NCBI RefSeq assembly: GCF_002854065.1
Contig: NZ_CP024147.1
Strand: one strand, 5' to 3'
Source: Escherichia coli
Lineage (GTDB): Bacteria; Pseudomonadota; Gammaproteobacteria; Enterobacterales; Enterobacteriaceae
DNA: 64,000 nt
Shown here: piece by piece, positions 17,666 through 33,604 of the stretch
Layout: each line of letters starts with the position of its first letter
How positions within the stretch are numbered: the stretch's first letter is position 1
Translations under genes and position numbers: made by a program
Notes under the pieces: model-generated
Databases searched by the model: none
The model's input: the letters and a program-made list of their open reading frames with translations, nothing else
Told to the model about the DNA's origin: nothing

Positions 17666-17986
17666 GGAAATGATGAAACATTATTCAGAAAATTAATTTA
17701 AAAAAACCATTCCTTAAGTCAAATATATATAAACGCCGAATAGCGATTAAATCCTTCTCAAAGAATGCACTGATAACATTGTGTTATTTTTATTGCCTCA
17801 TTTTTCTCACTCACTTATAGTTGGTCCCTGCTGGCAGTAATTTAGTCATTTCAGAGATTTTTACTCTGATGTGCACTTACTGACTTATCTCACAAGTAAT
17901 TTTTTCTCTAAATAAAGAATAGTGATGCCAGCAATTACAGTTAAATCTTGCTTTACTCGTAAAAACAATACTTTAATGGGGTTCTA

Positions 17987-18376
17987 ATGAGACATTACAT
18001 GAAGTGGTTTGCGGCTATTGCTGTTGTGGGTGCTTTAGCAGGTTGCGCGCGTACTGCGCCAATTGATCAGGTTCACTCAACCGTCAGCGCTGGTCATACC
18101 CAGGAACAAGTGAAAAAAGCGATTCTGAAAGCTGGCGTTGAACGCAAATGGATTATGTCCGAAGCCGGACAAGGCATAATTAAAGCACGTCAACAGTCAC
18201 GCGATCATTCAGCGGAAATACGCATTAACTACACGGCATCCAGCTACGATATCAATTATGAAAATAGCCAGAACCTACAAGCGTCAGGCGGACAAATTCA
18301 TAAAAACTACAATCGCTGGGTCCGCAATCTCGACAAAGATATTCAACTGAATTTGTCAGCGGGCGCAGATTTATAA
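17987..18376 (+). CDS. Putative lipoprotein of unknown function; first ORF of the accessory insert
   Basis: 129-aa ORF with signal peptide and lipobox (VGALAGC); preceded by GGGG RBS; alternative start 12 nt downstream (MKWFAA...). Confidence 0.5.
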   Translation: MRHYMKWFAAIAVVGALAGCARTAPIDQVHSTVSAGHTQEQVKKAILKAGVERKWIMSEAGQGIIKARQQSRDHSAEIRINYTASSYDINYENSQNLQASGGQIHKNYNRWVRNLDKDIQLNLSAGADL

Positions 18377-18435
18377 TTCTTCCTAAAGTCGGGCCGTTGC
18401 GGTCCGATAATAATTTAATTCCCTCTTAACAGGTT

Positions 18436-19503
18436 GTGCCCAACATGTACGAACAGGATTCTCTTAGCGCACTGGATGCGATTACCGAAGCTCAACGCAT
18501 TGCCTTTGCCCCTATGCTTTTTCAAACAGCACTCTGCCTACGTAATGCGGGTGTACTTTCATATCTGGATCGGCAAGGCAAACATGGCGCAACGCTGGCT
18601 GATATCACCGAACATAGCCATATCAACGAATATGCTGCCAGCGTTCTGTTAGATATGGGCTTAAGCGGGCGAATTATTACCTGTAAAGAGGGAATTTATT
18701 ACCTGGCGAAAATCGGTCATTACCTCCTGCATGACACTATGACTCGCGTGAATATGGATTTCACCCAGGATGTCTGTTACCAGGGGCTCTTCTTCCTCGC
18801 CGATTCACTCAATGAAGGAAAACCTTCCGGGTTAAAAGTATTTGGCGACTGGTCGACGATATATCCGGCACTTTCGCAATTACCAGACGCCGCTCGTGAA
18901 AGCTGGTTTGCGTTTGATCATTACTATTCAGATGGCGCATTTAACGCCGTACTGCCTTATGTATTCGCCAACAACCCCACAACATTGTACGATGTAGGCG
19001 GCAATACGGGTAAGTGGGCTTTGCGTTGCTGCAAATACAATGAAAACATCGCCGTGACGTTATTAGATCTGCCACAACAAATCGTACTAGCGAAAGAAAA
19101 TATCGCGAATGCAGGTTTTTCTGATCGCATAGATTTCCATGCGGTGGATATGCTAAGCGATGCCCCATTACCGGGCGAGGCTGATATCTGGTGGATGAGC
19201 CAATTTTTAGACTGTTTTTCACCCGAACAAATAATTAGCATACTCAGCAAAATTGCCAGCGTAATGAAGCCTGGCGCAAAAGTTTGCATCATGGAGTTGT
19301 TCTGGGATGCGCAGCGGTTTGAAGCAGCATCGTTTAGCCTGAACGCGTCCTCACTTTATTTTACCTGCATGGCAAACGGTAACAGCCGTTTCTATAGTGC
19401 AGAGAAATTTTACGACTATCTGAATAAAGCAGGATTCCAGGTAGCAGAGCGCCACGATAATTTAGGCGTTGGGCATACACTTTTGATATGCCAAAAGAAA
19501 TAA
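18436..19503 (+). CDS. apeB: SAM-dependent O-methyltransferase (class I), ApeB-like
   Basis: 355-aa ORF with SAM-binding motif YDVGGNTG and LLDLP; track start appears to be GTG, ATG 9 nt downstream (MYEQDSL...). Confidence 0.75.
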   Translation: MPNMYEQDSLSALDAITEAQRIAFAPMLFQTALCLRNAGVLSYLDRQGKHGATLADITEHSHINEYAASVLLDMGLSGRIITCKEGIYYLAKIGHYLLHDTMTRVNMDFTQDVCYQGLFFLADSLNEGKPSGLKVFGDWSTIYPALSQLPDAARESWFAFDHYYSDGAFNAVLPYVFANNPTTLYDVGGNTGKWALRCCKYNENIAVTLLDLPQQIVLAKENIANAGFSDRIDFHAVDMLSDAPLPGEADIWWMSQFLDCFSPEQIISILSKIASVMKPGAKVCIMELFWDAQRFEAASFSLNASSLYFTCMANGNSRFYSAEKFYDYLNKAGFQVAERHDNLGVGHTLLICQKK

Positions 19504-19543
19504 TCGTCACTTAATAATTTTGGTTTACCGCGGGCGCGCGTTG

Positions 19544-20266
19544 ATGAAATTTACATTAAATATTACCGACTGGCAGGCACTGGCGCCTGGACTTAGCGAA
19601 GCGCAGCAATGGCAAGCATGGTCGCGCCAGCCGTGGGCGATTGACCCTGCCGCGCCGTTGGCAAAATTAAGTGAACTGCCAATGATGACCGCCCGCCGCC
19701 TCAGTTCAGGCAGCAAACTGGCTGTTGAATGCGGTCTGGCAATGCTACGCCGCCATCAGCCAGACGCCGTTTTGTATACCAGTCGTCATGGCGAACTGGA
19801 GCGCAATTACCGCATTGTTCATGCACTGGCAACCGAACAGGCGCTTTCTCCGACGGACTTCGCGCTCTCCGTACACAACTCTTCCGTGGGTAACCTGACC
19901 ATTGCGGCCAAACAGCCGATCGTTTCGTCATCGCTTTCGGCTGGTCGCGACACTTTCCAGCAAGGTTTGTGTGAAGTGCTTAGTCTGTTACAGGCGGGCT
20001 ACCAGCGCGTGTTGATGGTCGATTTTGATGGCTTTCTGCCTGAGTTCTATCATCCACAACTGCCCGCAGAAATGCCGACCTGGCCGTACGCCGTCGCGCT
20101 GGTGATTGAAGCTGGCGATGAGTGGCAATGTGGAACGCAGTCAGCCATTGCGGGTAATGAAACAACACTGCCGCAAAGCATGTTGTTTTTACAGCACTAT
20201 TTACAAAATGCGGACACATTTTCACTGCCTGGCGAGCGCGTACAGTGGCGCTGGAGCCGTGGATGA
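19544..20266 (+). CDS. apeC: Ketosynthase-like chain-length-factor protein (KS-beta without active-site Cys), ApeC-like
   Basis: ORF 19520..20266 trimmed to ATG (MKFTLNITDWQ...); KS-like N-terminal fold but SSSLSAG where KS carries the catalytic Cys. Confidence 0.65.
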   Translation: MKFTLNITDWQALAPGLSEAQQWQAWSRQPWAIDPAAPLAKLSELPMMTARRLSSGSKLAVECGLAMLRRHQPDAVLYTSRHGELERNYRIVHALATEQALSPTDFALSVHNSSVGNLTIAAKQPIVSSSLSAGRDTFQQGLCEVLSLLQAGYQRVLMVDFDGFLPEFYHPQLPAEMPTWPYAVALVIEAGDEWQCGTQSAIAGNETTLPQSMLFLQHYLQNADTFSLPGERVQWRWSRG

Positions 20267-21084
20267 GTAAGCTGCTGTCACGTCTGGAGTGGACCTGGCG
20301 ACTGGTCATGACCGGGTTATGTTTTGCCCTGTTTGGTCTCGGCGGCCTGCTGCTTTCTGTCGTGTGGTTTAACATATTGTTAGTTTTGGTGTGGGATACT
20401 TCCCGCCGCCGTCGTTTGGCGCGTCGCAGCATTGCCGCCAGTTTTCGCCTGTTTTTAACTGTCGCGAAAGGGCTTGGCGTGCTGGATTATCGTATTGATG
20501 GCGCTGAAATTTTACGTCAGGAACGCGGTTGCCTCGTCGTAGCCAATCATCCCACGCTGATCGATTACGTGCTGCTGGCGTCAGTCATGCCAGAAACTGA
20601 CTGCCTGGTGAAAAGCGCGCTGTTAAAAAATCCTTTTCTTGGCGGCGTCGTGCGGGCGGCAGATTATTTAATCAACAGCGAAGCTGAAACCCTGTTACCC
20701 CGCTGCCAACAGCGACTGGCACAGGGTGACACTATCCTGATTTTCCCCGAAGGCACGCGAACGAAGCCCGGTGAAAAAATGACGCTGCAGCGCGGGGCGG
20801 CGAATATTGCCGTGCGCTGTGCCAGCGATTTACGCATCGTGACGATCGGCTGTAGCGAGCATCTGCTGGATAAACAAAGTAAATGGTATGACGTTCCACC
20901 TGACCGGCCGTTTTTTACGGTTGCAGTCCATGGTCGGGTTGAAATCAATAAATTTTACGATGCAACTTCACAAGAACCGGCGCTGGCAGCAAGGCAGTTA
21001 AACCGGCATCTTTTGCTTCAATTACAACAAGGTTGTTTACCTCTCTCAGGAATAAATAATGCAAGCGCTTTATCTGGAAATTAA
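20263..21084 (+). CDS. apeD: Lysophospholipid/1-acylglycerol-3-phosphate acyltransferase family protein, ApeD-like
   Basis: HX4D motif (NHPTLIDY), FPEGTR motif, N-terminal TM helix; ATG overlaps upstream stop (ATGA). Confidence 0.8.
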   Translation: MSKLLSRLEWTWRLVMTGLCFALFGLGGLLLSVVWFNILLVLVWDTSRRRRLARRSIAASFRLFLTVAKGLGVLDYRIDGAEILRQERGCLVVANHPTLIDYVLLASVMPETDCLVKSALLKNPFLGGVVRAADYLINSEAETLLPRCQQRLAQGDTILIFPEGTRTKPGEKMTLQRGAANIAVRCASDLRIVTIGCSEHLLDKQSKWYDVPPDRPFFTVAVHGRVEINKFYDATSQEPALAARQLNRHLLLQLQQGCLPLSGINNASALSGN

Positions 21085-21316
21085 AAACCTCATCATCAGC
21101 ACCCTCAATCTGGACGAGTTGACGCCTGATGATATCGATACCGACGCGCCGCTGTTTGGCGACGGTTTAGGGCTGGACTCTATCGATGCCCTGGAACTGG
21201 GACTGGCAGTAAAAAATGAGTACGGCATCGTGCTCTCTGCGGAAAGCGAAGAGATGCGTCAGCACTTTTTCTCCGTCGCCACTCTGGCCTCTTTCATTGC
21301 TGCGCAACGTGCCTGA
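21059..21316 (+). CDS. apeE: Acyl carrier protein 1, ApeE-like
   Basis: 85 aa, phosphopantetheine attachment motif GLDSIDALEL. Confidence 0.85.
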   Translation: MQALYLEIKNLIISTLNLDELTPDDIDTDAPLFGDGLGLDSIDALELGLAVKNEYGIVLSAESEEMRQHFFSVATLASFIAAQRA

Positions 21317-21327
21317 GGAAAGCCATC

Positions 21328-21579
21328 ATGACAGAACAACAAACCGTCTATCAGGAAGTCTCAGCCCTGCTGGTTAAGCTGTTTGAAATCGATCCGCAGG
21401 ACATCAAACCTGAAGCGCGCCTGTACGAAGATCTGGAACTGGACAGCATCGACGCCGTTGACATGATTGTGCACCTGCAAAAGAAAACCGGTAAGAAAAT
21501 CAAGCCGGAAGAGTTTAAAGCAGTGCGTACAGTCCAGGATGTCGTCGAGGCTGTAGAACGCCTGCTACAAGAAGCCTGA
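21328..21579 (+). CDS. apeF: Acyl carrier protein 2, ApeF-like
   Basis: 83 aa, attachment motif LELDSIDAVDMI; GAGGAA RBS. Confidence 0.85.
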   Translation: MTEQQTVYQEVSALLVKLFEIDPQDIKPEARLYEDLELDSIDAVDMIVHLQKKTGKKIKPEEFKAVRTVQDVVEAVERLLQEA

Positions 21580-21583
21580 TCTG

Positions 21584-22165
21584 ATGTCGGGCATTCGCTC
21601 GCTACCGATGATTAAGCTGCTGACTGGATTATTGCTGCTCGCCTGGCCGTTTGTGATTTGGTTTGGCTTAGCGCATAACGGCCTGCACTGGCTGTTGCCG
21701 CTAATAGCGTTGCTGCTTTTGTTGCGCCTGCGCCAGACCCGTCGCCAGGCGGGGCCGCTCCAGGTCGTCACACAAATCGTCGCTGTCGTGGGCATCGCAT
21801 TATGTGTCGCCAGCGTTCTGTTGAAAACACACCAGCTACTGCTGTTTTACCCGGTAGTGGTTAACGCGGTCATGCTGGCGGTTTTTGGCGGTTCGCTGTG
21901 GTCGGCAATGCCGATAGTTGAGCGGCTGGCGCGTTTGCAGGAGCCAGATCTGCCGGAAAAGGGCATGCGCTATACCCGCCGCGTCACGCAAATCTGGTGC
22001 GGCTTTTTCATCATCAACGGTGGAATTGCCCTCTTTACCGCGCTTTATGCCGATATGTCGTTATGGACCGCCTGGAACGGCATGATTGCTTATTTGTTGA
22101 TGGGAACATTAATGGCTGGTGAATGGCTGGTGCGCCGTCAGGTGATGAAAAGAGATCGCGCATGA
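21584..22165 (+). CDS. apeG: Integral membrane protein of unknown function, ApeG-like
   Basis: 193 aa with ~5 hydrophobic helices; translationally coupled to neighbours. Confidence 0.6.
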   Translation: MSGIRSLPMIKLLTGLLLLAWPFVIWFGLAHNGLHWLLPLIALLLLLRLRQTRRQAGPLQVVTQIVAVVGIALCVASVLLKTHQLLLFYPVVVNAVMLAVFGGSLWSAMPIVERLARLQEPDLPEKGMRYTRRVTQIWCGFFIINGGIALFTALYADMSLWTAWNGMIAYLLMGTLMAGEWLVRRQVMKRDRA

Positions 22166-23523
22166 AGCAGACCTTACCGCTTGCACGCTGGCTGACTGCG
22201 CCACGCTCTGATGACACACCCATTGCGTGGCTGGACGAAAGCTTCTGGACGCTGGGCGATTTGCGTCACGATGTCGCGCAACTTATCTGCCGCTTGCAGC
22301 AACAGCCGGGTGAACGCTGGGCGCTGTGCTTTGAGAACAGCTATCTGTTTATCGTTGCCCTGCTCGCCACGCTACACGCCGGAAAAACGCCGGTGCTTCC
22401 GGGGCATAACCGTGTTATCCAGCTTAACGAGCAACGTGAACTTTTTGATGGTGTGCTTAGCGACAGCGAACTTAACTGGCAAGGTTCATTGCTGTTGGTA
22501 GCAAGTTCCCCACAAATCGCGACACAATCCTTCACCTTTGCCGCTATAGCGCCAGAGGCTTTTATCGAGCTGTTTACCTCCGGTTCCACGGGACAGCCGA
22601 AACGGGTGATTAAACCTGTTCATTTGCTGGATCGTGAAGCAGAACTGCTGGCTGAACGATTAGGCGCACGTCTGGCGGGTTGTCGTGTCGTCGGTTCCGT
22701 ATTGCCGCAGCATTTGTACGGCCTGACTTTTCGCGTTTTCCTGCCCATGGCGTTGGGATTACCGCTGCACGCCGCCATGCTCTGGTATGTCGAACAGTTT
22801 GCCGCGTTGAGTCATCAGCATCGCTATATCTTCATCAGCAGCCCGGCATTTTTGAAGCGCCTGGATACCCAGCTTTCTCCGCCACCCGTTCAGGTGCTTC
22901 TCTCTGCTGGCGGTGAGCTGCCGTGGCAGGATGTACAACACACCGCAAGCTGGCTGCGCGTCTGGCCTGATGAAATCTACGGCAGCACGGAAACCGGTGT
23001 CATCGCCTGGCGTTACCGCGAACAAGAGCAACGCCGCTGGCTACCCTTCCCTGGTATGCAGTTCCAGGCCGAAGGTGATTCTTTTCGTCTCTTTTCACCG
23101 CTGATGGCGGAAGATAACGGCCTGTTACTCGACGATCTCTTGCAGTTTAGCCAGGACGGTCAGTTCCATCTGATGGGGCGTCGTGGGCGCATCGTTAAGA
23201 TTGAAGAAAAACGTATTTCACTCCAGGAAGTAGAACAACGTCTGCTGGCGCTGGACGGTATTCGCGAGGCGGCGGCAGTTCCCGTTACGCGCGGCGGGCG
23301 TCAGAGCATAGGCGTTTTGCTGGTGCTGGATGACGAAGCTCATCTGCAATGGCAGAACGGCGGCGGGCATAGCCAGGAAATGACCTGGCGGCGTTTACTG
23401 CGCCCGACGCTGGAGCCAGTTGCTATTCCGCGTTACTGGCGCGTTATTGATGAAATGCCAGTAAACAGTATGAACAAGCGTGTCTATGCGCAATTACAGG
23501 AGTTATTTCATGAAGCCCCATGA
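22162..23523 (+). CDS. apeH: AMP-dependent synthetase/ligase (aryl/acyl adenylating enzyme), ApeH-like
   Basis: ORF 22123..23523 trimmed to ATG overlapping upstream stop (MKQTLPLARWL...); adenylation P-loop FTSGSTGQPKRV. Confidence 0.8.
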   Translation: MKQTLPLARWLTAPRSDDTPIAWLDESFWTLGDLRHDVAQLICRLQQQPGERWALCFENSYLFIVALLATLHAGKTPVLPGHNRVIQLNEQRELFDGVLSDSELNWQGSLLLVASSPQIATQSFTFAAIAPEAFIELFTSGSTGQPKRVIKPVHLLDREAELLAERLGARLAGCRVVGSVLPQHLYGLTFRVFLPMALGLPLHAAMLWYVEQFAALSHQHRYIFISSPAFLKRLDTQLSPPPVQVLLSAGGELPWQDVQHTASWLRVWPDEIYGSTETGVIAWRYREQEQRRWLPFPGMQFQAEGDSFRLFSPLMAEDNGLLLDDLLQFSQDGQFHLMGRRGRIVKIEEKRISLQEVEQRLLALDGIREAAAVPVTRGGRQSIGVLLVLDDEAHLQWQNGGGHSQEMTWRRLLRPTLEPVAIPRYWRVIDEMPVNSMNKRVYAQLQELFHEAP

Positions 23524-23863
23524 AATCGAGCGCCATCAGGCACAAACGAATCACCTTGAAATTGTTCTGCATCTCAGGGCGGATCTGTTCTGGTTTCGCG
23601 GTCATTTTGCCGTGCAACCATTACTCCCAGGAGTTGCGCAAATCGACTGGGCGATGAGCTACGCGCTCAATCTGCTCGCGCCTGGCTGGCGTTTTCACTC
23701 CATTCAGAACATAAAATTCCAGTCTCCGTTGCTGCCGGAAAACCGCGTCACGCTCGCGCTTAACTGGCAGGAAGAACGCCAGATTCTGAGCTTTAGCTAT
23801 CAGCGTCACGACGGTGACGCCCGCCACACCGCCAGTAGCGGGAAGATCCGCCTATGTCGGTAA
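23510..23863 (+). CDS. apeI: Hotdog-fold 3-hydroxyacyl-ACP dehydratase (FabA/FabZ-like), ApeI-like
   Basis: ~117 aa from MKPHEIERHQ...; hotdog-size protein in FAS-like context; start overlaps apeH end. Confidence 0.65.
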   Translation: MKPHEIERHQAQTNHLEIVLHLRADLFWFRGHFAVQPLLPGVAQIDWAMSYALNLLAPGWRFHSIQNIKFQSPLLPENRVTLALNWQEERQILSFSYQRHDGDARHTASSGKIRLCR

Positions 23864-25530
23864 ACTTTTCTCCCTGCGTGTTGATTCCCTGCTATAACCA
23901 CGGCGCGATGATGCCGGGCGTGCTGGCGCGTCTTAAGCCATTTAATCTCCCCTGTATTGTGGTGGACGACGGCAGCGATGCCGCCACGCAACAGCAACTG
24001 GATAATCTGGTTAGCGAACAGCCTGGCGTGACCTTAATTCGCTTAGCAGAAAACGCAGGTAAAGGCGCGGCAGTGATGCGTGGCTTACAGGCAGCGGCAG
24101 ACGCAGGGTTCAGCCATGCGGTGCAGGTGGATGCTGACGGTCAACATGCGATTGAAGATATCCCCAAACTGCTGGCACTCGCTGAACGACACCCTGCGGC
24201 GCTGATCTCCGGCCAGCCAATTTACGATGACTCCATCCCCCGCTCACGGCTTTACGGGCGCTGGGTCACCCACGTCTGGGTATGGATCGAAACGCTCTCC
24301 CTGCAACTGAAAGACAGCATGTGCGGCTTTCGCGTTTATCCGGTTGCGCCAACGCTGCAACTGGCAAAACACGCCACCATCGGCAAGCGGATGGATTTCG
24401 ACACTGAAGTGATGGTGCGCCTCTACTGGCAGGGAAACACCAGCTATTTCGTGCCGACCCGCGTCACCTATCCACTGGACGGGCTTTCGCATTTTGATGC
24501 CCTGAAAGATAACGTCCGCATCTCGCTCATGCACACGCGTCTGTTTTTCGGCATGTTACCGCGTATTCCTTCACTGCTGATGCGCCGCTCTTCCAGCCAC
24601 TGGGCGCGGCAGAGTGAAGTGAAAGGATTATGGGGAATGCGCCTGATGCTGCTGGTCTGGCGTCTGCTGGGAAGAACGGCGTTTAGCGCGCTGCTTTACC
24701 CGGTGGTGGGCGTCTACTGGCTCACTGCTTCTCGTGCGCGCAAAGCGTCGCAAGACTGGCTCGCCCGTGTACGACAGCATCAACCACAGGCGGCAAAACT
24801 CAACAGCTATCAGCACTTTCTACGTTTCGGTAATGCCATGCTCGACAAAATCGCCAGTTGGCGCGGCGAGCTGCAACTGGGGCGCGATGTGCTGTTTGCG
24901 CCAGGCGCAGAAGCGGCACTTAACGTCAGCGATCCGCGCGGCAAATTGCTGCTGGCCTCGCATCTTGGCGATGTGGAAGTGTGCCGGGCGCTGGCAAAAA
25001 TTCAGGGCTACAAAACCATTAACGCGCTGGTGTTTAGCGAAAACGCCCAACGCTTTAAACAGATAATGCAGGAGATGGCCCCGCAGGCCGGCATCAACCT
25101 GATGCCGGTAACGGATATCGGCCCGGAAACCGCCATCCTGCTCAAAGAGAAGCTGGATAACGGCGAATGGGTGGCGATTGTCGGTGACCGCATCGCCGTC
25201 AACCCGCAACGCGGCGGCGACTGGCGCGTCTGCTGGAGTCCGTTTATGGGCCAGCCTGCGCCCTTCCCACAGGGGCCGTTTATTCTCGCGTCTATTTTGC
25301 GCTGCCCGGTGAATCTGATTTTCGCCCTGCGCCAGCACGGCAAGCTGCATATTCACTGCGAAACCTTTGCCGACCCGCTGCTGTTGCCGCGTGGCGAACG
25401 CCAACAGGCGCTGCAAAACGCTATCGACCACTACGCCGCGCGTCTGGAACATTACGCGCTCCAGTCGCCCCTCGACTGGTTTAATTTTTTCGATTTCTGG
25501 CAACTGCCGGAAATTCAGGACAAGGAGTAA
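23854..25530 (+). CDS. apeJ: Two-domain protein: N-terminal family-2 glycosyltransferase fused to a C-terminal domain of unresolved (possibly acyltransferase-like) function, ApeJ-like
   Basis: 558 aa; GT-A signatures CYNHGAMMP, VVDDGSDA, QVDADGQH in the first ~230 aa; remainder has no motif I can assign. Confidence 0.75.
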   Translation: MSVNFSPCVLIPCYNHGAMMPGVLARLKPFNLPCIVVDDGSDAATQQQLDNLVSEQPGVTLIRLAENAGKGAAVMRGLQAAADAGFSHAVQVDADGQHAIEDIPKLLALAERHPAALISGQPIYDDSIPRSRLYGRWVTHVWVWIETLSLQLKDSMCGFRVYPVAPTLQLAKHATIGKRMDFDTEVMVRLYWQGNTSYFVPTRVTYPLDGLSHFDALKDNVRISLMHTRLFFGMLPRIPSLLMRRSSSHWARQSEVKGLWGMRLMLLVWRLLGRTAFSALLYPVVGVYWLTASRARKASQDWLARVRQHQPQAAKLNSYQHFLRFGNAMLDKIASWRGELQLGRDVLFAPGAEAALNVSDPRGKLLLASHLGDVEVCRALAKIQGYKTINALVFSENAQRFKQIMQEMAPQAGINLMPVTDIGPETAILLKEKLDNGEWVAIVGDRIAVNPQRGGDWRVCWSPFMGQPAPFPQGPFILASILRCPVNLIFALRQHGKLHIHCETFADPLLLPRGERQQALQNAIDHYAARLEHYALQSPLDWFNFFDFWQLPEIQDKE

Positions 25531-25533
25531 AGG

Positions 25534-25956
25534 GTGCTTAACGATCCCCGATTTACCGCTGAAGTCGAGCTGACCATTCCCTTTCACGACGTCGATATGA
25601 TGGGCGTGGCCTGGCACGGTAACTATTTTCGCTACTTTGAAGTGGCCCGCGAGGCGCTGCTCAACCAGTTCAATTACGGCTATCGGCAGATGAAAGAGTC
25701 CGGTTATTTGTGGCCAGTGGTCGATGCGCGGGTGAAATATCGCCACGCCCTCACCTTTGAGCAACGCATCCGCGTGCGTGCGCATATCGAAGAGTTCGAA
25801 AACCGTCTGCGGATTGGCTATCAGATTTTCGATGCCGAAACGGGCAAACGCGCCACCACCGGATACACCATTCAGGTCGCGGTCGACGAGCAAAGTCGCG
25901 AACTGTGCTTTGTCAGCCCCGATATTCTGTTTGAACGCATGGGAGTCAAACCATGA
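25534..25956 (+). CDS. apeK: 4HBT/YbgC-type hotdog acyl thioesterase, ApeK-like
   Basis: 140 aa; apparent GTG start after AAGGAG RBS; hotdog thioesterase-like N-terminus (FHDVDMMGVAWHGNYFRYFE). Confidence 0.7.
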   Translation: MLNDPRFTAEVELTIPFHDVDMMGVAWHGNYFRYFEVAREALLNQFNYGYRQMKESGYLWPVVDARVKYRHALTFEQRIRVRAHIEEFENRLRIGYQIFDAETGKRATTGYTIQVAVDEQSRELCFVSPDILFERMGVKP

Positions 25957-26558
25957 AATTTTTACCGCTACTGGCGCTGCTGATTAGCCCGTTTGTGAGC
26001 GCCCTGACCCTGGACGATCTTCAGCAACGCTTTACCGAACAATCGGTGATCCGCGCCCATTTCGATCAAACCCGGACGATTAAAGATCTGCCGCAGCCGC
26101 TGCGATCTCAGGGCCAGATGTTGATCGCCCGCGACCAGGGGCTGTTGTGGGATCAAACCTCACCGTTCCCCATGCAACTATTACTGGACGATAAACGCAT
26201 GGTGCAGGTGATCAACGGTCAGCCGCCGCAAATCATCACGGCAGAAAACAACCCGCAGATGTTTCAGTTTAACCACCTGCTGCGCGCGCTGTTCCAGGCC
26301 GATCGCAAAGTGCTGGAACAAAACTTCCGCGTCGAATTTACCGACAAAGGCGAAGGCCGCTGGACGCTGCGCCTGACCCCAACCACCACGCCGCTGGATA
26401 AAATTTTCAACACCATCGATCTCGCCGGGCAAACCTATCTGGAGAGCATTCAACTTAATGATAAACAGGGCGATCGCACCGATATTGCTCTTACCCAACA
26501 TCAACTGACGCCAGCGCAACTGACCGATGACGAACGCCAACGTTTTGCCGCCCAGTAA
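25953..26558 (+). CDS. apeL: LolA-like periplasmic lipid/lipoprotein carrier, ApeL-like
   Basis: 201 aa with signal peptide MKFLPLLALLISPFVSA; ATGA overlap with upstream gene. Confidence 0.65.
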   Translation: MKFLPLLALLISPFVSALTLDDLQQRFTEQSVIRAHFDQTRTIKDLPQPLRSQGQMLIARDQGLLWDQTSPFPMQLLLDDKRMVQVINGQPPQIITAENNPQMFQFNHLLRALFQADRKVLEQNFRVEFTDKGEGRWTLRLTPTTTPLDKIFNTIDLAGQTYLESIQLNDKQGDRTDIALTQHQLTPAQLTDDERQRFAAQ

Positions 26559-28845
26559 ACGCCCCGCGCTGTTATGGGGGCTAGTCTGCCTGGTCATGGC
26601 GGCGGCGTTGCTGATCCTGCTGCCGCAATCACGGCTGAACAGTAGCGTGCTGGCTATGTTACCCAAACAGGCGATGGGCGATATTCCCCCAGCGCTGAAT
26701 GACGGCTTTATGCAGCGTCTGGACCGCCAACTGGTGTGGCTGGTCAGCCCCGGTAAAGAGGCTAATCCCAGGGTGGCTCAGGAGTGGCTGACGCTGCTGC
26801 AAAAATCCGCTGCGCTCGGCGACGTTAAAGGGCCAATGGATGCCGCCAGCCAGCAAGCGTGGGGCGCGTTTTTCTGGCAGCACCGCAACGGCCTGATTGA
26901 CCCCGACACCCGCGCCCGCCTGCAAAACGGCGGCGAAGCGCAGGCGCAGTGGATCCTCTCCCAGCTTTATTCTGCATTCTCCGGGGTAAGCGGCAAGGAG
27001 CTGCAAAACGATCCGCTGATGTTAATGCGCGGCTCGCAGCTGGCGATGGCAAAAAATGGCCAGCGTTTGCGGCTGATGGACGGCTGGCTGGTGACGCAGG
27101 ATCCCCAGGGCAACTACTGGTATCTGCTGCACGGCGAACTGGCGGGATCGTCGTTTGATATGCAGCAAACCCACCAGCTCATCACGACCCTGAATACGCT
27201 GGAAAAGGATCTGAAAACGCGTTACCCACAGGCGCAGTTGCTCTCGCGCGGCACGGTATTTTACAGCGATTACGCCAGTCAACAGGCGAAGCAGGATATC
27301 TCAACCCTGGGCGTGGCAACGCTGCTGGGGGTGATATTACTGATTGTGGCGGTGTTCCGCTCTTTGCGCCCATTGTTGCTTTGCGTGATTTCCATCGGCA
27401 TCGGCGCGCTGGCGGGAACGGTCGCCACTTTATTGATTTTCGGTGAATTACACCTGATGACGCTGGTGATGAGCATGAGCGTTATCGGCATTTCCGCTGA
27501 CTACACGCTCTATTATCTCACCGAGCGGATGGTGCACGGCAACGACGTTTCGCCGTGGCAAAGCCTGGCGAAAGTACGCAATGCCCTGCTGCTGGCGCTG
27601 CTCACCACCGTGGCGGCATATCTGATTATGATGCTCGCCCCCTTCCCCGGCATTCGCCAGATGGCGATTTTTGCCGCCGTCGGGTTGAGCGCCTCCTGTC
27701 TGACCGTCCTGTTCTGGCATCCGTGGCTGTGCCGTGGCCTGCCGGTGCGTCCGGTTCCGGCGATGGCGCTGATGCTGCGCTGGCTGGCAGCGTGGCGGCG
27801 CAATAAAAAACTGTCGCTGGGTCTGCCCGTCGCGCTGGCGCTGTTTTCGCTGGCGGGGATGTCAATGCTGCGCGTCGATGACGATATCTCGCAGTTACAG
27901 GCGCTGCCGCAGCATATTCTGGCGCAGGAGAAAGCCATTACCGCCCTGACCGGACAAAGCGTCGATCAAAAATGGTTTGTGGTTTACGGCGATTCGCCAC
28001 AGCAAACATTGCGGCGACTGGAGAAATATACCGCCTCACTTGAGTATGCGAAAAAAGAGGGGCTTATCAGCAACTACCGCACCATTCCGCTGAACTCCCT
28101 TGCGCGGCAGGAGGAAGATTTACAACTGCTGAAAACGGCGGCCCCGACAGTAACAAAAGCGCTGCAAAATGCCGGGCTGACGGCAGTGAACCCGGATCTC
28201 AACGCCATGCCAGTGAACGTTGATGAATGGCTGGCAAGCCCTGCCAGTGAAGGCTGGCGTCTGCTGTGGCTGACGCTGGAAAACGGCGAAAGCGGCGTAC
28301 TGGTGCCGGTTGAAGGGGTTAAAAGTAGCGCGTTGATGCAGGAAATCGCCACATATTACCCTTGCGGCATTGCCTGGGTTGATCGCAAAAGCACCTTTGA
28401 TGAGTTGTTCGCGCTTTACCGTTATGTCTTAACCGGCTTGTTGCTGGTGGCGCTGGCGGTGATTGCCTGCGGCGCAGTGGCCCGTCTCGGCTGGCGCAAA
28501 GGGCTTATCAGCCTTGTACCTTCGGTGCTTTCGCTGGGTTGTGGTCTGGCGGTGCTGGCGATGAGCGGGCAGGCGGTGAATCTCTTTTCGCTGCTGGCGC
28601 TGGTGCTGGTGCTTGGCATCGGCATCAACTACACGCTGTTTTTCAGTAATCCGCGCGGCACACCATTAACTTCGCTACTGGCGATCACGCTGGCAATGCT
28701 CACCACCTTGCTGACGCTGGGAATGCTGATATTCAGCGCCACCCAGGCCATCAGCAGTTTTGGCATTGTGCTGGTGAGCGGTATTTTCACCGCCTTCCTG
28801 CTTTCGCCGCTGGCGATGCCCGATAAAAAGAGAACAAAAAAATGA
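26527..28845 (+). CDS. apeM: MMPL/RND-superfamily membrane exporter, ApeM-like
   Basis: 772 aa, two hydrophobic TM bundles separated by soluble domains; start ambiguous (ATG 26527 overlapping apeL, or in-frame start further down). Confidence 0.75.
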   Translation: MTNANVLPPSKRPALLWGLVCLVMAAALLILLPQSRLNSSVLAMLPKQAMGDIPPALNDGFMQRLDRQLVWLVSPGKEANPRVAQEWLTLLQKSAALGDVKGPMDAASQQAWGAFFWQHRNGLIDPDTRARLQNGGEAQAQWILSQLYSAFSGVSGKELQNDPLMLMRGSQLAMAKNGQRLRLMDGWLVTQDPQGNYWYLLHGELAGSSFDMQQTHQLITTLNTLEKDLKTRYPQAQLLSRGTVFYSDYASQQAKQDISTLGVATLLGVILLIVAVFRSLRPLLLCVISIGIGALAGTVATLLIFGELHLMTLVMSMSVIGISADYTLYYLTERMVHGNDVSPWQSLAKVRNALLLALLTTVAAYLIMMLAPFPGIRQMAIFAAVGLSASCLTVLFWHPWLCRGLPVRPVPAMALMLRWLAAWRRNKKLSLGLPVALALFSLAGMSMLRVDDDISQLQALPQHILAQEKAITALTGQSVDQKWFVVYGDSPQQTLRRLEKYTASLEYAKKEGLISNYRTIPLNSLARQEEDLQLLKTAAPTVTKALQNAGLTAVNPDLNAMPVNVDEWLASPASEGWRLLWLTLENGESGVLVPVEGVKSSALMQEIATYYPCGIAWVDRKSTFDELFALYRYVLTGLLLVALAVIACGAVARLGWRKGLISLVPSVLSLGCGLAVLAMSGQAVNLFSLLALVLVLGIGINYTLFFSNPRGTPLTSLLAITLAMLTTLLTLGMLIFSATQAISSFGIVLVSGIFTAFLLSPLAMPDKKRTKK

Positions 28846-29426
28846 TCAAATCCACATTCTGGCGAGCGTTCGCCCTGACCGCTACGCTTATCCTCACCGG
28901 CTGTAGCCACTCGCAACCAGAACAGGAAGGCCGCCCGCAGGCGTGGCTGCAACCTGGCACGCGCATCACGCTGCCGGCACCAGGGATTTCACCCGCAGTC
29001 AATTCGCAGCAACTGTTGACCGGCAGCTTCAACGGCAAAACCCAGTCGCTGTTAGTGATGCTTAACGCCGACGATCAGAAAATCACCCTTGCCGGGCTGT
29101 CGTCGGTCGGCATTCGCCTGTTTCTGGTGACCTACGATGCGCAAGGGCTACGCGCCGAGCAATCCATCGTCGTCCCACAGTTACCGCCCGCAAGTCAGGT
29201 ACTGGCTGACGTGATGCTCAGCCACTGGCCGATTAGCGCCTGGCAACCGCAACTTCCCGCAGGATGGACACTTCGCGACAACGGTGACAAACGCGAGCTG
29301 CGTAACGCCAGCGGCAAACTGGTCACGGAAATCACCTATCTGAATCGCAAGGGCAAACGCGTGCCAATCAGCATTGAGCAGCATGTCTTTAAATACCACA
29401 TCACCATTCAATACTTAGGTGACTGA
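28842..29426 (+). CDS. apeN: Lipoprotein of unknown function, ApeN-like
   Basis: 194 aa, signal peptide plus lipobox LTGC; ATGA overlap with apeM stop. Confidence 0.6.
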   Translation: MIKSTFWRAFALTATLILTGCSHSQPEQEGRPQAWLQPGTRITLPAPGISPAVNSQQLLTGSFNGKTQSLLVMLNADDQKITLAGLSSVGIRLFLVTYDAQGLRAEQSIVVPQLPPASQVLADVMLSHWPISAWQPQLPAGWTLRDNGDKRELRNASGKLVTEITYLNRKGKRVPISIEQHVFKYHITIQYLGD

Positions 29427-29427
29427 T

Positions 29428-30597
29428 ATGATTTATATTTCCGCCGTCGGCATGATCAACGCCCTGGGAAATAACCTTGACGAAATCGCAACCAACCTGA
29501 CTCGCGGTGTTGCTCCCGGCATGCGCCCGCGCGCAGGCTGGTTGCAGGGGCATCCGCAGGCGGTCCTGGCTGGCGTGGATGGCGAGCTTCCGCTTATCCC
29601 GGAAAAATTCGCTGCGCACCGCTCGCGCAACAATCAGATCCTGCTGGCGGCGCTGGCGCAGATCCAGCCGCAGGTTGATGACGCTATCGCGAAATATGGT
29701 CGCGAGCGCATCGCGATTGTACTTGGCACCAGCACCTCCGGCCTGCATGAAGGCGACACGCACGTTAACCTGCGCACCCACGGGCAGCCGAGCACCACAT
29801 GGCACTACGCGCAACAGGAACTCGGCGATCCGTCGCGTTTTCTCAGCCACTGGCTGGCGCTCGACGGCCCGGCCTATACCCTTTCAACCGCCTGCTCTTC
29901 CAGCGCCAGAGCGATAATCAGCGGGCGCAGGCTTATCGAAGCGGGGCTGGTCGATGCCGCCATTGTGGGTGGCGCAGACACCCTGAGCCGGATGCCGATT
30001 AACGGTTTTCACAGCCTCGAATCGCTGTCGCCAACCTTATGTCAGCCGTTTGGTCGTGACCGCGCAGGTATCACCATTGGTGAAGGGGCGGGGCTAATGC
30101 TGCTGACCCGGGAACCGCAGCCCATCGCGTTGCTGGGCGTTGGTGAATCGAGCGACGCTTACCATATTTCGGCCCCGCATCCGCAGGGCGAAGGGGCGAT
30201 CCGCGCCATTAATCAGGCACTGACCGATGCGCAGCTTACGCCAGATGACGTCGGCTATATCAACCTGCACGGCACCGCCACGCAACTCAACGACCAGATT
30301 GAATCGATGGTGCTTAACGCCCTGTTTGGCGAACGCGTACCGTGCAGCTCCACCAAACATTTGACCGGCCACACGCTGGGCGCGGCGGGCATTACCGAAG
30401 CAGCAATCAGTATGTTGATCTTACAGCGTGATTTACCGCTGCCCGCCCAAGATTTCAGCCTGTCGCCACGCGATCCCACGCTGCCACCCTGCGGCATTAT
30501 CGAAAAACCGCAGCCGCTGGCTCGTCCGGTGATCCTGTCCAATTCCTTCGCCTTTGGCGGCAATAACGCCAGCATTCTGCTCGGGAGGGTTTCGTGA
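29428..30597 (+). CDS. apeO: Beta-ketoacyl-ACP synthase (KAS I/II-like), ApeO-like
   Basis: ORF 29419..30597 trimmed to ATG after AGGTGA RBS; catalytic Cys (LSTACSSSA), His (NLHGTAT), GHTLGAAG. Confidence 0.85.
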   Translation: MIYISAVGMINALGNNLDEIATNLTRGVAPGMRPRAGWLQGHPQAVLAGVDGELPLIPEKFAAHRSRNNQILLAALAQIQPQVDDAIAKYGRERIAIVLGTSTSGLHEGDTHVNLRTHGQPSTTWHYAQQELGDPSRFLSHWLALDGPAYTLSTACSSSARAIISGRRLIEAGLVDAAIVGGADTLSRMPINGFHSLESLSPTLCQPFGRDRAGITIGEGAGLMLLTREPQPIALLGVGESSDAYHISAPHPQGEGAIRAINQALTDAQLTPDDVGYINLHGTATQLNDQIESMVLNALFGERVPCSSTKHLTGHTLGAAGITEAAISMLILQRDLPLPAQDFSLSPRDPTLPPCGIIEKPQPLARPVILSNSFAFGGNNASILLGRVS

Positions 30598-31058
30598 GCC
30601 ACTATTTATCCCCCGGCGCTTATCTGCCCCACGACGCGCCCATGTTACTGCTGGAAGACGTGGTGAGCGTCAGCGATGACAGCGCGGTGTGCCGCGTGAC
30701 GGTTTCGCCCAGTGGCGTACTGGCACCGTTTCTCGACCCGGACGGCAATCTCCCCGGCTGGTTTGCCCTTGAACTGATGGCGCAAACCGTCGGCGTCTGG
30801 TCTGGCTGGCATCGCCACCAGCAGGGCAAAAACAGTATTGAGTTAGGGATGATACTGGGCGCGCGTGAATTGCTTTGCGCCGCTGGCATTCTGCCCGCAG
30901 GCCAGACGCTGACCATTACCGTCAAACTGCTGATGCAGGACGATCGCTTCGGCAGTTTTGAGTGCAGCATCAACGACGGCGAGGCGACGGGCCGCATTAA
31001 CACCTTCCAGCCGACCGCGGAAGAACTTACCACCCTGTTTCAACAAGGAGCGTCCTGA
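30594..31058 (+). CDS. apeP: Hotdog-fold dehydratase, ApeP-like
   Basis: 154 aa; apparent GTG start after GGGAGGG RBS, overlapping apeO stop. Confidence 0.65.
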   Translation: MSHYLSPGAYLPHDAPMLLLEDVVSVSDDSAVCRVTVSPSGVLAPFLDPDGNLPGWFALELMAQTVGVWSGWHRHQQGKNSIELGMILGARELLCAAGILPAGQTLTITVKLLMQDDRFGSFECSINDGEATGRINTFQPTAEELTTLFQQGAS

Positions 31059-31789
31059 TGAGTCGTTCAGTTCTGGTTACTGGTGCCAGCAAAGGCATTG
31101 GTCGCGCCATCGCCTGCCAACTGGCGGCAGACGGCTTTAACATTGGCGTTCACTATCACCGTGACGCCACAGGCGCTCAGGAAACGCTGAATGCCATTGT
31201 CGCCAACGGGGGTAACGGGCGTTTGCTCAGTTTCGACGTCGCAAACCGCGAACAGTGTCGGGAAGTGCTGGAGCATGAGATCGCGCAACACGGTGCCTGG
31301 TACGGCGTGGTCAGTAACGCCGGGATCGCCCGCGATGCCGCTTTTCCGGCTTTAAGCGATGACGACTGGGATGCGGTGATCCACACCAACCTCGACAGTT
31401 TCTACAACGTCATTCAGCCGTGCATTATGCCAATGATCGGCGCGCGCCAGGGTGGGCGCATCATCACGCTGTCCTCGGTTTCCGGCGTAATGGGCAATCG
31501 CGGCCAGGTGAATTACAGCGCAGCCAAAGCCGGAATTATCGGCGCAACTAAAGCGCTGGCTATCGAACTCGCGAAGCGCAAAATCACCGTCAACTGCATC
31601 GCGCCGGGGCTTATTGATACCGGGATGATCGAAATGGAAGAGAGCGCTCTGAAAGAGGCAATGTCGATGATCCCCATGAAACGTATGGGCCAGGCGGAAG
31701 AAGTTGCCGGGCTTGCCAGTTATTTAATGTCTGATATTGCGGGTTACGTCACCCGCCAGGTTATTTCCATCAACGGAGGGATGTTATGA
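31058..31789 (+). CDS. apeQ: SDR-family 3-oxoacyl-ACP reductase (FabG-like), ApeQ-like
   Basis: 243 aa; TGASKGIGRAI cofactor motif, catalytic YSAAKAG. Confidence 0.9.
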   Translation: MSRSVLVTGASKGIGRAIACQLAADGFNIGVHYHRDATGAQETLNAIVANGGNGRLLSFDVANREQCREVLEHEIAQHGAWYGVVSNAGIARDAAFPALSDDDWDAVIHTNLDSFYNVIQPCIMPMIGARQGGRIITLSSVSGVMGNRGQVNYSAAKAGIIGATKALAIELAKRKITVNCIAPGLIDTGMIEMEESALKEAMSMIPMKRMGQAEEVAGLASYLMSDIAGYVTRQVISINGGML

Positions 31790-33015
31790 CACGTCGCGTA
31801 GTGATTACAGGAATGGGCGGCGTGACTGCCTTTGGTGAAAACTGGCAGGACGTTTCTGCACGCTTACTGGCGTATGAAAATGCGGTGCGCAAAATGCCGG
31901 AGTGGCAGGTCTACGATGGCCTGCACACCCTGCTTGGCGCGCCTGTTGATGATTTCACGCTACCGGAGCACTATACCCGCAAGCGTATCCGTGCGATGGG
32001 CCGCGTATCGCAAATGTCGACCCGTGCCAGCGAGCTGGCGTTAGAGCAGGCAGGGTTGATTGGCGATCCGATATTAACCAGCGGCGAAACGGGCATTGCG
32101 TACGGTTCATCGACCGGCAGTACCGGCCCGGTAAGCGAGTTCGCCACCATGCTGACGGAAAAGCACACCAATAACATCACTGGCACCACCTATGTGCAGA
32201 TGATGCCGCACACCACCGCCGTTAATACTGGCCTCTTTTTCGGCCTGCGCGGGCGGGTGATCCCAACCTCCAGCGCCTGTACTTCCGGCAGCCAGGCAAT
32301 CGGTTATGCGTGGGAAGCCATTCGCCACGGTTATCAAACGGTGATGGTTGCTGGTGGTGCCGAAGAGTTATGTCCTTCAGAAGCAGCGGTATTTGATACG
32401 CTTTTCGCCACCAGCCAGCACAATGATGCGCCGAAAACCACACCTTCACCGTTCGATGAAAACCGCGACGGGCTGGTGATTGGTGAAGGCGCAGGTACGC
32501 TCATTCTCGAAGAACTGGAGCACGCCAAAGCGCGCGGCGCGACCATTTACGGTGAAATCGTCGGCTTTGCGACTAACTGCGACGCGGCACATATTACCCA
32601 GCCGCAGCGCGAAACCATGCAGTATTGTATGGAGCAATCGCTGAAAATCGCCGGGTTAAGCGCACAAGATATCGGCTATATTTCAGCGCATGGTACGGCG
32701 ACCGATCGCGGTGATATGGCAGAAAGTCTGGCGACAGCAACCATTTACGGTGATAATGTGCCGCTCTCCTCGCTGAAAAGTTATTTTGGTCATACGCTTG
32801 GTGCCTGTGGCGCGCTCGAAGCCTGGATGAGTCTGCAAATGATGCGCGAAGGTTGGTTTGCGCCTACGCTAAACCTGAATAAACCAGACCCGAATTGTGG
32901 CGCGCTGGATTACATCATGCATGAAGCCCGCAAGGTTGATTGTGAGTTTTTGCAGAGTAACAACTTTGCCTTTGGCGGCATTAATACATCCATCATCATT
33001 AAACGTTGGCCCTGA
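31786..33015 (+). CDS. apeR: Beta-ketoacyl-ACP synthase II-like, ApeR-like
   Basis: 409 aa; MTRRVVITGMGG N-terminus, catalytic Cys (SSACTSGS), His (SAHGTAT), GHTLGACG. Confidence 0.9.
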   Translation: MTRRVVITGMGGVTAFGENWQDVSARLLAYENAVRKMPEWQVYDGLHTLLGAPVDDFTLPEHYTRKRIRAMGRVSQMSTRASELALEQAGLIGDPILTSGETGIAYGSSTGSTGPVSEFATMLTEKHTNNITGTTYVQMMPHTTAVNTGLFFGLRGRVIPTSSACTSGSQAIGYAWEAIRHGYQTVMVAGGAEELCPSEAAVFDTLFATSQHNDAPKTTPSPFDENRDGLVIGEGAGTLILEELEHAKARGATIYGEIVGFATNCDAAHITQPQRETMQYCMEQSLKIAGLSAQDIGYISAHGTATDRGDMAESLATATIYGDNVPLSSLKSYFGHTLGACGALEAWMSLQMMREGWFAPTLNLNKPDPNCGALDYIMHEARKVDCEFLQSNNFAFGGINTSIIIKRWP

Positions 33016-33016
33016 T

Positions 33017-33604
33017 ATGTATCGGATAGTTCTGGGGAAAGTTTCGACCTTAAGCGCAGCTCCACTGCCACCGGGTTTACGCGAGCAAGCACCGCAAGGT
33101 CCACGACGCGAACGCTGGCTGGCGGGGCGTGCATTGCTTTCGCACACGCTTTCCCCGCTACCGGAGATCATCTATGGCGAACAAGGCAAACCTGCATTCG
33201 CGCCGGAAACGCCGCTATGGTTCAACTTAAGCCATAGCGGTGACGATATCGCCCTGCTGTTGAGTGATGAAGGCGAAGTCGGCTGCGATATCGAAGTGAT
33301 TCGCCCGCGCGCCAACTGGCGCTGGCTGGCGAACGCCGTGTTCAGCCTCGGGGAACACGCTGAAATGGACGCCGTGCATCCTGATCAGCAACTGGAAATG
33401 TTCTGGCGCATCTGGACGCGCAAAGAAGCCATCGTTAAACAGCGTGGCGGCAGCGCCTGGCAAATCGTCAGCGTAGACAGCACCTATCACTCCTCGCTGT
33501 CAGTCAGCCATTGTCAGCTAGAAAATTTAAGCCTTGCGATCTGCACCCCCACCCCCTTTACGCTCACCGCCGACAGTGTGCAATGGATCGATTCAGTTAA
33601 CTGA
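33017..33604 (+). CDS. acpT: 4'-phosphopantetheinyl transferase AcpT
   Basis: ORF 32897..33604 trimmed to MYRIVLGKVSTLSAAPLPPGL... (195 aa); starts ~1 bp after apeR stop. Confidence 0.9.
   Translation: MYRIVLGKVSTLSAAPLPPGLREQAPQGPRRERWLAGRALLSHTLSPLPEIIYGEQGKPAFAPETPLWFNLSHSGDDIALLLSDEGEVGCDIEVIRPRANWRWLANAVFSLGEHAEMDAVHPDQQLEMFWRIWTRKEAIVKQRGGSAWQIVSVDSTYHSSLSVSHCQLENLSLAICTPTPFTLTADSVQWIDSVN

Follow-up and report, generated by a model that had tools for sequence, protein, structure and literature searches.

The lipid attachment and export genes of an aryl polyene cluster in Escherichia coli and a proposed stepwise pathway

Introduction

The aryl polyene (APE) cluster apeA-R of Escherichia coli CFT073, to which the 2014 work of Cimermancic is reportedly linked, is the described counterpart of a gene block found in a window of 64,000 nucleotides of E. 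coli DNA (contig NZ_CP024147.1), five genes of which, apeJ, apeK, apeL, apeM and apeN, are the subject of this analysis. In Gram-negative bacteria the APE clusters rank, by published description, with the most widespread families of biosynthetic gene clusters. In uropathogenic E. coli their pigment-lipids protect against oxidative stress and favour the formation of biofilm (PMC8253772, PMC12871727). An APE product has been shown for CFT073 by pigmentation and high-performance liquid chromatography and for Xenorhabdus by nuclear magnetic resonance (PMC8253772; 10.1101/2020.12.19.423268).

It is for the Xenorhabdus cluster that the structure of the product has been solved. In Xenorhabdus doucetiae, whose ape cluster is 'highly similar' to that of CFT073 in its authors' description, the APE is esterified to N-acetylgalactosamine (GalNAc) on a glycerol-phosphate-GalNAc backbone (Grammbitter 2020, bioRxiv 10.1101/2020.12.19.423268), and the same cluster is also covered by Grammbitter 2019, as cited in PMC8253772. 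When intact, these products are 1.2-1.3 kDa lipids, an apeJ deletion accumulates a diacyl-glycerol-3-phosphate intermediate, and it was proposed that ApeJ adds GalNAc first and then acylates the GalNAc with APE bound to ApeE (10.1101/2020.12.19.423268). The Xenorhabdus annotation gives ApeJ as a glycosyl/acyltransferase, ApeM as a resistance-nodulation-division (RND) exporter and ApeL and ApeN as LolA-/LolB-like proteins.

For E. coli, Johnston 2021 (PMC8253772) proposed that ApeD and ApeJ attach the APE to a lipid anchor, that the RND protein ApeM exports it and that the LolA/LolB-like ApeL and ApeN localise it to the outer membrane. Deletion of apeD or apeJ led to late intermediates and deletion of apeK to early acids, with all APE metabolites lost on deletion of apeM (PMC8253772). 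The reading favoured here, to which we attach a probability of roughly 0.75, is that apeJ to apeN form the half of the E. coli APE cluster that serves lipid attachment and export, and that they work by the stepwise pathway set out below.

Results and discussion

Identity of the locus

According to RefSeq annotation an operon-like block of 18 genes sits between yhhT and acpT, with nikABCDE-nikR beyond. In order it encodes a lipoprotein, a methyltransferase, a chain-length factor, a lysophospholipid acyltransferase (LPLAT), two acyl carrier proteins (ACPs), a COG4648 protein, an AMP-binding enzyme, the ApeI dehydratase, a glycosyltransferase family 2 (GT2) protein, a thioesterase, a LolA-family protein, an MMPL protein, a DUF3261 protein, a ketosynthase, the ApeP dehydratase, FabG2 and a second ketosynthase. 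This block is the APE cluster apeA-R and is part of the E. coli chromosome. The APE family is defined by ketosynthases (apeO and apeR), a chain-length factor (apeC), ACPs (apeE and apeF), dehydratases (apeI and apeP), a ketoreductase (apeQ) and a transporter (apeM) in one locus (Grammbitter 2020, Fig. 1), and the whole of this core set is found in the window by Pfam, by RefSeq products and by the collinearity of all 18 proteins with those of CFT073. The Pfam matches include ApeI-like (E=1e-39) and Ketoacyl-synt_2 (E=1.2e-66), and the Pfam E-values for the genes listed here are far beyond chance. Judged from its sequence, the locus is by every criterion that can be applied to it a member of the APE cluster family, with the nature of its product taken from that of its relatives.

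The same 18 genes stand in the same order in CFT073 (c1204-c1186 = apeA-R; Johnston 2021, PMC8253772), where the RefSeq product names match those of the window cluster, and ApeJ to ApeR are 97-99.8% identical to their counterparts among c1186-c1204. Within the region of interest the identity is 98.0% for ApeJ, 99.3% for ApeK, 98.0% for ApeL, 96.8% for ApeM and 96.9% for ApeN. Positions 23854-28845 are 100% identical to E. coli strain CUWW06, and the surrounding 27-kb stretch differs from that strain at 4 of 26,992 positions, with the same genes annotated by RefSeq. The cluster was found in 825 of 5426 complete E. coli genomes, O157:H7 strains among them, and was chromosomal every time. Gene content, synteny and near-identity to CFT073 are direct observations, as are the domain identities and predicted folds given in the following sections.

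The acyltransferase half of ApeJ

The first-pass annotation of the window described a protein of 558 amino acids with an N-terminal GT-A glycosyltransferase domain and a C-terminal domain of about 300 amino acids that it could not assign. Both observations hold, as Pfam places Glycos_transf_2 (PF00535) on residues 8-131 (E=1.5e-20) and is blank over the C-terminal half. The domain analysis it had proposed for that half was run, and the profile, the PF03279 homologues and the model all yield an acyltransferase of the LpxL/LpxM/PatA type.

Because direct Pfam and NCBIfam scans of this half were unusable, a profile was built from a whole-library search. HMMER with ApeJ residues 240-558 found 3035 relatives, either stand-alone proteins of ~310-330 amino acids or GT2 fusions of ~555-595, and 72 of the stand-alone relatives were aligned with the query to give the 73 sequences of profile A1. 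The homologue search for ApeJ and ApeN gave almost only relatives of 80-90% identity, and the diversity was taken from a search at the level of 50% clusters and from contig neighbours. Across the 73 sequences a His and a Gly are invariant in the near-invariant motif SHLGxxE, as is the D-R of GDR, and ApeJ itself carries the HX4(D/E) dyad as H370-LGDV-E375, the His being the invariant one. Against the PDB the profile matched Acinetobacter LpxM (5KN7, E=2.7e-7), with the HX4E aligned on the catalytic HFGTWE, and also PatA (E=0.03), whilst 64 of the 73 homologues match PF03279, the lipid A biosynthesis acyltransferase family (best E=2.9e-19).

The AlphaFold2 model of the domain has a predicted local distance difference test score (pLDDT) of 89.7 and a predicted template modelling score of 0.89. 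A Foldseek search of the PDB with this model gave 14 strong matches, all of them PatA or LpxM (E from 3e-11 to 1e-9, TM-scores of 0.55-0.70), and the next match came at E=5e-3, a gap of 7 orders of magnitude. PDB 5KNK is the E127A catalytic-residue mutant of LpxM. The match of the profile to LpxM with its HX4E, the PF03279 membership of most homologues and a model that matches PatA and LpxM alone together argue that the C-terminal half of ApeJ is an LpxL/LpxM/PatA-type acyltransferase, with H370 and E375 as its predicted dyad. This agrees with the literature, in which ApeJ is labelled 'glycosyltransferase/acyltransferase' (PMC8253772; 10.1101/2020.12.19.423268). Hydropathy flagged residues 474-492 as a transmembrane helix, a candidate that was rejected because in the acyltransferase model, which is a confident one, the segment falls in a helix/strand region (model residues 235-255).

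The target of PatA is the 6-OH of a mannose on a phosphatidyl-sugar, and its acylation is to our knowledge the closest known chemistry to the acylation of GalNAc on phosphatidyl-GalNAc. PatA and the LpxM/LpxL proteins (PF03279) have the same predicted fold as the ApeJ domain and, as is presumed for ApeJ, they place an acyl chain on a hydroxyl of the sugar in a membrane glycolipid. They differ in that identity to the ApeJ domain is 15-19%, that the ApeJ copy is fused to a GT2 domain and that the presumed donor for ApeJ is an aryl-polyenoyl-ACP, whereas PatA and LpxM use fatty acyl-ACP or acyl-CoA.

The glycosyltransferase half of ApeJ

Within the GT2 half the signatures DDGS (residues 38-41) and DADGQH (93-98) are invariant across ten orthologues, as are the DXD motif, D93-A-D95, and the residue D39. 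The closest solved structures are those of dolichol-phosphate mannose synthase (DPMS), ArnC and GtrB, with DPMS the top PDB match of the profile (1.4e-12). DPMS, GtrB, ArnC and the polyprenyl-phosphate GalNAc synthase PpgS all put a sugar on a lipid monophosphate, a chemistry that fits the APE lipid of Xenorhabdus, in which the anomeric carbon of GalNAc is joined to the phosphate of diacylglycerol phosphate. The best NCBIfam match of this half is PpgS, at 52 bits against a cut-off of 370, with ArnC at 24 against 529, thus neither equivalog model gives orthology to a named lipid-phosphate glycosyltransferase. It is a consistent reading of these likenesses, rather than one of family membership, that the GT2 half may act as a lipid-phosphate glycosyltransferase.

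The accessory and export proteins

A thioesterase, a LolA-like periplasmic carrier, an MMPL exporter and a lipoprotein had been noticed behind the GT2 protein in the first reading of the window, and an LPLAT acyltransferase earlier in the operon, and each is borne out at its place by Pfam or by a lipobox. The LPLAT protein is ApeD, which matches PF01553 (E=1.3e-19), has an HX4D motif, HPTLID, at residue 102 and one N-terminal transmembrane segment by hydropathy. ApeK matches 4HBT_2 (E=1.1e-16) and the YbgC/FadM subfamily TIGR00051 (E=1.3e-16), the latter at 61 bits against a cut-off of 68.7. ApeL matches Pfam LolA and LolA_3 (E of ~2e-11), with PF03548 at 44.4 bits against a cut-off of 23.6, and its N-terminal hydrophobic segment is a cleavable-looking type I signal peptide (FVSA/LTLDD). 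It falls short of the equivalog cut-offs both for LolA itself (TIGR00547, 61 against 112 bits) and for the flexirubin LolA2 (NF053544, 57 against 125 bits).

ApeM matches Pfam MMPL (PF03176, E=3.6e-8, 33.2 bits against a cut-off of 20.5) and has by hydropathy ~12-13 transmembrane segments and two large loops at about residues 33-257 and 448-633. Its NCBIfam matches are HAE3, HpnN, BstA and MMPL, the first three below their cut-offs, and its closest solved relative is the hopanoid exporter HpnN (5KHN, E=1.7e-6). HpnN/MmpL exporters and ApeM share the arrangement of ~12 transmembrane segments with two periplasmic loops and are encoded in lipid biosynthesis clusters, although ApeM scores 47 bits against a cut-off of 752 for the HpnN model, is shorter (772 against ~880 amino acids) and has dedicated LolA/LolB-like partners.

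ApeN matches Pfam DUF3261 (E=2.5e-39) and has a lipobox, LTG/C, with Ser at +2 and a Cys that is invariant in alignments A2 and A3; ApeA also has a lipobox, LAG/C. The AlphaFold2 model of ApeN, made from a 19-sequence alignment, has a pLDDT of 83.9, and the top Foldseek match is Vibrio cholerae LolB (8CM1, E=1.6e-5), followed by matches that are almost all to LolA, LolB or ependymin-type proteins. By sequence there is no membership of the LolB family, since Pfam gives DUF3261 only and NCBIfam gives no match. ApeN is thus a lipobox lipoprotein with a predicted fold of the LolA/LolB type, an unclosed beta-barrel.

A secreted LolA-family protein with a lipid-anchored partner of the LolB-type fold is found both in the LolA/LolB relay and in the LolA2/LolB2 pair of Bacteroidota flexirubin loci (PMC11885536), with LolA2/LolB2 and ApeL/ApeN alike encoded inside an aryl-polyene-type pigment locus. 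The Lol relay uses an ABC extractor of the LolCDE type and its cargo is protein, whereas the APE cluster has an RND/MMPL pump and a presumed glycolipid cargo. No LolCDE-type ABC transporter is annotated by RefSeq within apeA-R, and as the RND/MMPL protein stands in its place ApeM, ApeL and ApeN are not a canonical Lol pathway. By analogy, APE export may be seen as combining an HpnN/MmpL-type lipid exporter with a LolA/LolB relay.

Conservation in diverged loci

Nine contigs were examined, each encoding a relative of the acyltransferase domain that has diverged to 34-47% identity, and seven of them have enough flank for gene order to be read. These are unrelated metagenomic and genomic contigs, yet all seven share the order AMP-ligase, ApeI, GT2, acyltransferase, (ammonia-lyase), 4HBT, LolA-like, MMPL-like, (halogenase or methyltransferase), DUF3261, ketosynthase, ApeP, ketoreductase, ketosynthase. 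The GT2 and acyltransferase are separate, adjacent and usually overlapping genes in seven loci (L005, L007-L010, L013 and L014) and are fused in two (L011 and L012), and from these two states it follows that the 558-residue ApeJ of E. coli is a fusion of two cooperating adjacent genes. A protein of 1185 amino acids in the 50%-cluster library (P0127) joins the AMP-binding enzyme (ApeH), the ApeI dehydratase, the GT2 and the LpxL-like acyltransferase in one chain, a Rosetta-stone fusion that links starter loading to lipid attachment.

The proposed pathway

At the inner membrane, the PlsC-type LPLAT ApeD would place an acyl chain made by the cluster on an acceptor of the lysophosphatidic acid type. 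The GT2 half of ApeJ would then glycosylate the lipid phosphate from a nucleotide sugar, probably uridine diphosphate GalNAc, to give a phosphatidyl-sugar, by the chemistry of DPMS, GtrB, ArnC and PpgS but with a glycerophospholipid rather than a polyprenyl phosphate as acceptor. The PatA/LpxM-type half of ApeJ would move the finished aryl polyene from the carrier protein ApeE to a hydroxyl of the sugar, with the hotdog thioesterase ApeK perhaps helping in release or proofreading. The proton-driven RND pump ApeM may then extract the APE lipid from the inner membrane and pass it to the periplasmic ApeL, which would hand it to ApeN, anchored in the outer membrane. The enzymatic half of this scheme is well supported. 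Three parts of it are our inference, namely which sugar donor is used, which of the two ApeJ reactions comes first in E. coli and the transport relay from end to end, and for the relay from ApeM to ApeL to ApeN it is the folds, the targeting signals and the conserved synteny that point to it.

The first-pass annotation had suggested that the acyl chain is transferred to a glyco- or phospholipid carrier, which matches both the model of Johnston 2021 and the structure of the Xenorhabdus APE lipid. Its further suggestion of Lol-like trafficking to the outer membrane stands in so far as it matches the published model and ApeL and ApeN are of LolA/LolB type, and the route would not be a true Lol pathway, an RND pump taking the place of LolCDE. 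Export of the APE lipid to the outer membrane remains a hypothesis. The stronger idea, that an RND pump, a LolA-like carrier and a LolB-like receptor make up a self-contained, proton-driven route from inner to outer membrane for a glycolipid and not a lipoprotein, has in our judgement an even chance of being correct, and it is already stated in the literature as a hypothesis.

A number of points weigh against the favoured reading. A Pfam scan of E. coli ApeJ gave no match over about residues 240-558, with none at E<=0.01 when the C-terminal domain was scanned alone, and the sole direct NCBIfam match of this half is a weak one to PatA (E=0.0017), so the acyltransferase assignment draws on the family profile and the predicted structure. 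The likeness of the GT2 half to lipid-phosphate glycosyltransferases is not exclusive, as chondroitin synthase scores similarly, and a hydropathy scan of residues 225-300 found no transmembrane segment but a moderately hydrophobic linker, where GtrB and ArnC have C-terminal transmembrane helices. For ApeN the TM-scores to LolB are modest, at 0.45-0.48. The lipid anchor of the E. coli APE was left undetermined in PMC8253772, the published APE-cluster work considered holds no experiment showing cargo binding by ApeL/ApeN or an outer-membrane location in E. coli, and in 2025 the authors working on the LolA2/LolB2 of flexirubin loci still called such a role untested (PMC11885536).

Alternative explanations

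It could be that the anchor is lipid A itself or a lipid-A-like glucosamine glycolipid, to which the LpxL/LpxM-like half of ApeJ adds the APE as a secondary acyl chain, the product then reaching the outer membrane with lipopolysaccharide via Lpt. Lipid A or a derivative was raised as a possible anchor by Johnston et al. (PMC8253772), and the best PDB sequence relative of the C-terminal domain is indeed a lipid A secondary acyltransferase, LpxM, but the model fits PatA, an acyltransferase of a phosphatidyl-sugar, at least as well. As the product solved for Xenorhabdus, whose cluster is closely related, is a glycerol-phosphate-GalNAc lipid and not lipid A, and as neither a fused GT2 nor a dedicated RND/LolA/DUF3261 module would be needed if Lpt carried the product, lipid A is an unlikely anchor. 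An alternative cargo, a lipoprotein, has been voiced in PMC8253772 and, for flexirubin loci, in PMC11885536: the APE would be part of the lipid anchor of ApeA, or of ApeN, and the LolA/LolB-like pair would move the protein. The LolA/LolB folds are those of known lipoprotein carriers and the cluster does encode two lipoproteins. Deletion of apeA, however, leaves near-wild-type pigmentation (PMC8253772), ApeA is the least conserved of the proteins, at 64% identity between two E. coli alleles, and among the related loci some, but not all, have a gene of its size ahead of the cluster, whilst the products purified from Xenorhabdus are protein-free lipids (10.1101/2020.12.19.423268), which makes this a slightly less likely account still.

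The product might instead be a free acid, released by ApeK and expelled through ApeM like any common substrate of an efflux pump, with the LolA-like and DUF3261 proteins accessory or unrelated. Small-molecule export is common among RND pumps, the thioesterase gene directly precedes the transporter genes and for years the only APE compounds known were hydrolysed acids or esters (10.1101/2020.12.19.423268). Against this, the pigment is bound to the cells and its intact forms are lipids of the size given above, a deletion of apeK still gives early APE acids (PMC8253772), the cluster conserves two acyltransferases along with a glycosyltransferase, and the nearest relatives of ApeM are lipid transporters (HpnN, BstA, MMPL) rather than multidrug pumps, and this is the least probable of the explanations considered. 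Attachment to a phosphatidyl-sugar by ApeD and ApeJ, followed by export through ApeM, ApeL and ApeN, is the reading preferred here.

Gene layout, alleles and chromosomal sites

The coordinates of the features are collected in Table 1. The junctions between the genes apeJ to apeN are overlaps of 4-32 nucleotides or spacings of 3 nucleotides, and such overlapping or abutting junctions fit a single operon. A promoter and terminator scan upstream of apeA found sites no more numerous than in shuffled sequence.

Table 1. Features of the APE locus, in coordinates of the window unless given as residues.
Feature	Position	Strand	Source
Complete apeA-apeR aryl polyene cluster	17999..33015	+	RefSeq annotation; gene-by-gene CFT073 match
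apeD, LPLAT (PlsC-type) acyltransferase	ORF 20245-21084, RefSeq 20263..21084	+	Pfam PF01553
apeJ (558 amino acids)	23854-25530	+	Open reading frame (ORF) list and Pfam
apeJ, N-terminal GT2 (GT-A) glycosyltransferase domain	23854..24570	+	PF00535
apeJ, predicted C-terminal LpxL/LpxM/PatA-type (PF03279-like) acyltransferase domain	24571..25530	+	Profile, AlphaFold2 model
ApeJ HX4E motif HLGDVE	Residues 370-375, window 24961-24978	+	Alignment
apeK, hotdog-fold (4HBT/YbgC-type) thioesterase, 140 amino acids	25534..25956	+	Pfam 4HBT_2
apeL, periplasmic LolA-family carrier, 201 amino acids	25953..26558	+	Pfam LolA/LolA_3
apeM, RND/MMPL-type inner-membrane exporter, 772 amino acids	26527..28845	+	Pfam MMPL
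apeN, DUF3261 lipoprotein, 194 amino acids	28842..29426 (just past the region 23854-28845)	+	Pfam DUF3261
acpT, phosphopantetheinyl transferase	33017..33604	+	Annotation

The cluster does not stand at the same chromosomal site in all strains. In CFT073 (1143727-1158748) it is found in an island flanked by an integrase and insertion sequences (IS), beside dgcT and pgaABCD and without an adjacent acpT, whereas the yhhT-acpT site, at 17608-33604 in the window, is also used in O157:H7 and ECA64, thus the same APE cluster occurs at two sites in the E. coli chromosome. This difference in locus prompted the idea that the CFT073 cluster is a divergent paralogue of the window cluster, which is ruled out by the identity of apeJ-R. 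In the window acpT begins 2 nucleotides past the stop codon of apeR, so that the phosphopantetheinyl transferase that is an 'orphan' in K-12 here adjoins its cognate carrier-protein genes. This is the situation of O157:H7 in De Lay & Cronan 2006, at least as that work is cited in PMC8253772, where AcpT is reported to activate the ApeE/ApeF homologues of O157:H7.

It is apparent that the cluster is also a mosaic of alleles. Compared with CFT073, ApeA (17999-18376) is 64% identical, ApeG (21584-22165) 82%, ApeH 64.6% and ApeI 73%, the remaining Ape proteins being at 94-99.8%. For the apeH-apeI segment (22162-23863) the E. coli records with the cluster divide into two allele classes, 567 of them sharing at least 95% DNA identity with the window and 256 sharing ~68%. 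The differing adenylating enzyme ApeH could mean a different aryl starter or a different pairing with the ACP. In strain P393-F10 (NZ_CP076274.1 3380261-3383277) the cluster has decayed to a remnant in which apeK and apeL are intact and apeP is present, but apeJ is reduced to its last 124 nucleotides, apeN is truncated, apeO is frameshifted and apeM is deleted. This remnant directly abuts a truncated cdiA-o11/cdiI-o11 contact-dependent inhibition module.

Elsewhere in the window, a hicA/hicB toxin-antitoxin pair is found between nikR and yhhJ (~39157-39788). At ~46000-50000 the guanine-plus-cytosine fraction falls to 0.35-0.41 over yhiJ and an adjacent second DUF4049 paralogue, both on the minus strand, a pair that looks like an old horizontal acquisition. 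The window closes, after gorA, with a gene for a DEAD/DEAH-box helicase and then a copy of IS2 (~62776-64000).

Significance

The interpretation of these genes as serving lipid attachment and export is already known, as that reached in the first-pass annotation reproduces the published model. Nothing new about the APE system follows from the window, other than that the published model can be recovered from sequence alone. Because the final location of the product depends on the genes for attachment and export, these are natural targets for anti-virulence work and for the study of non-canonical lipid traffic to the outer membrane. If the glycolipid route through ApeM, ApeL and ApeN is true, ApeL and ApeN would be the first demonstrated proteins of the LolA/LolB fold dedicated to a non-protein lipid cargo in Proteobacteria.

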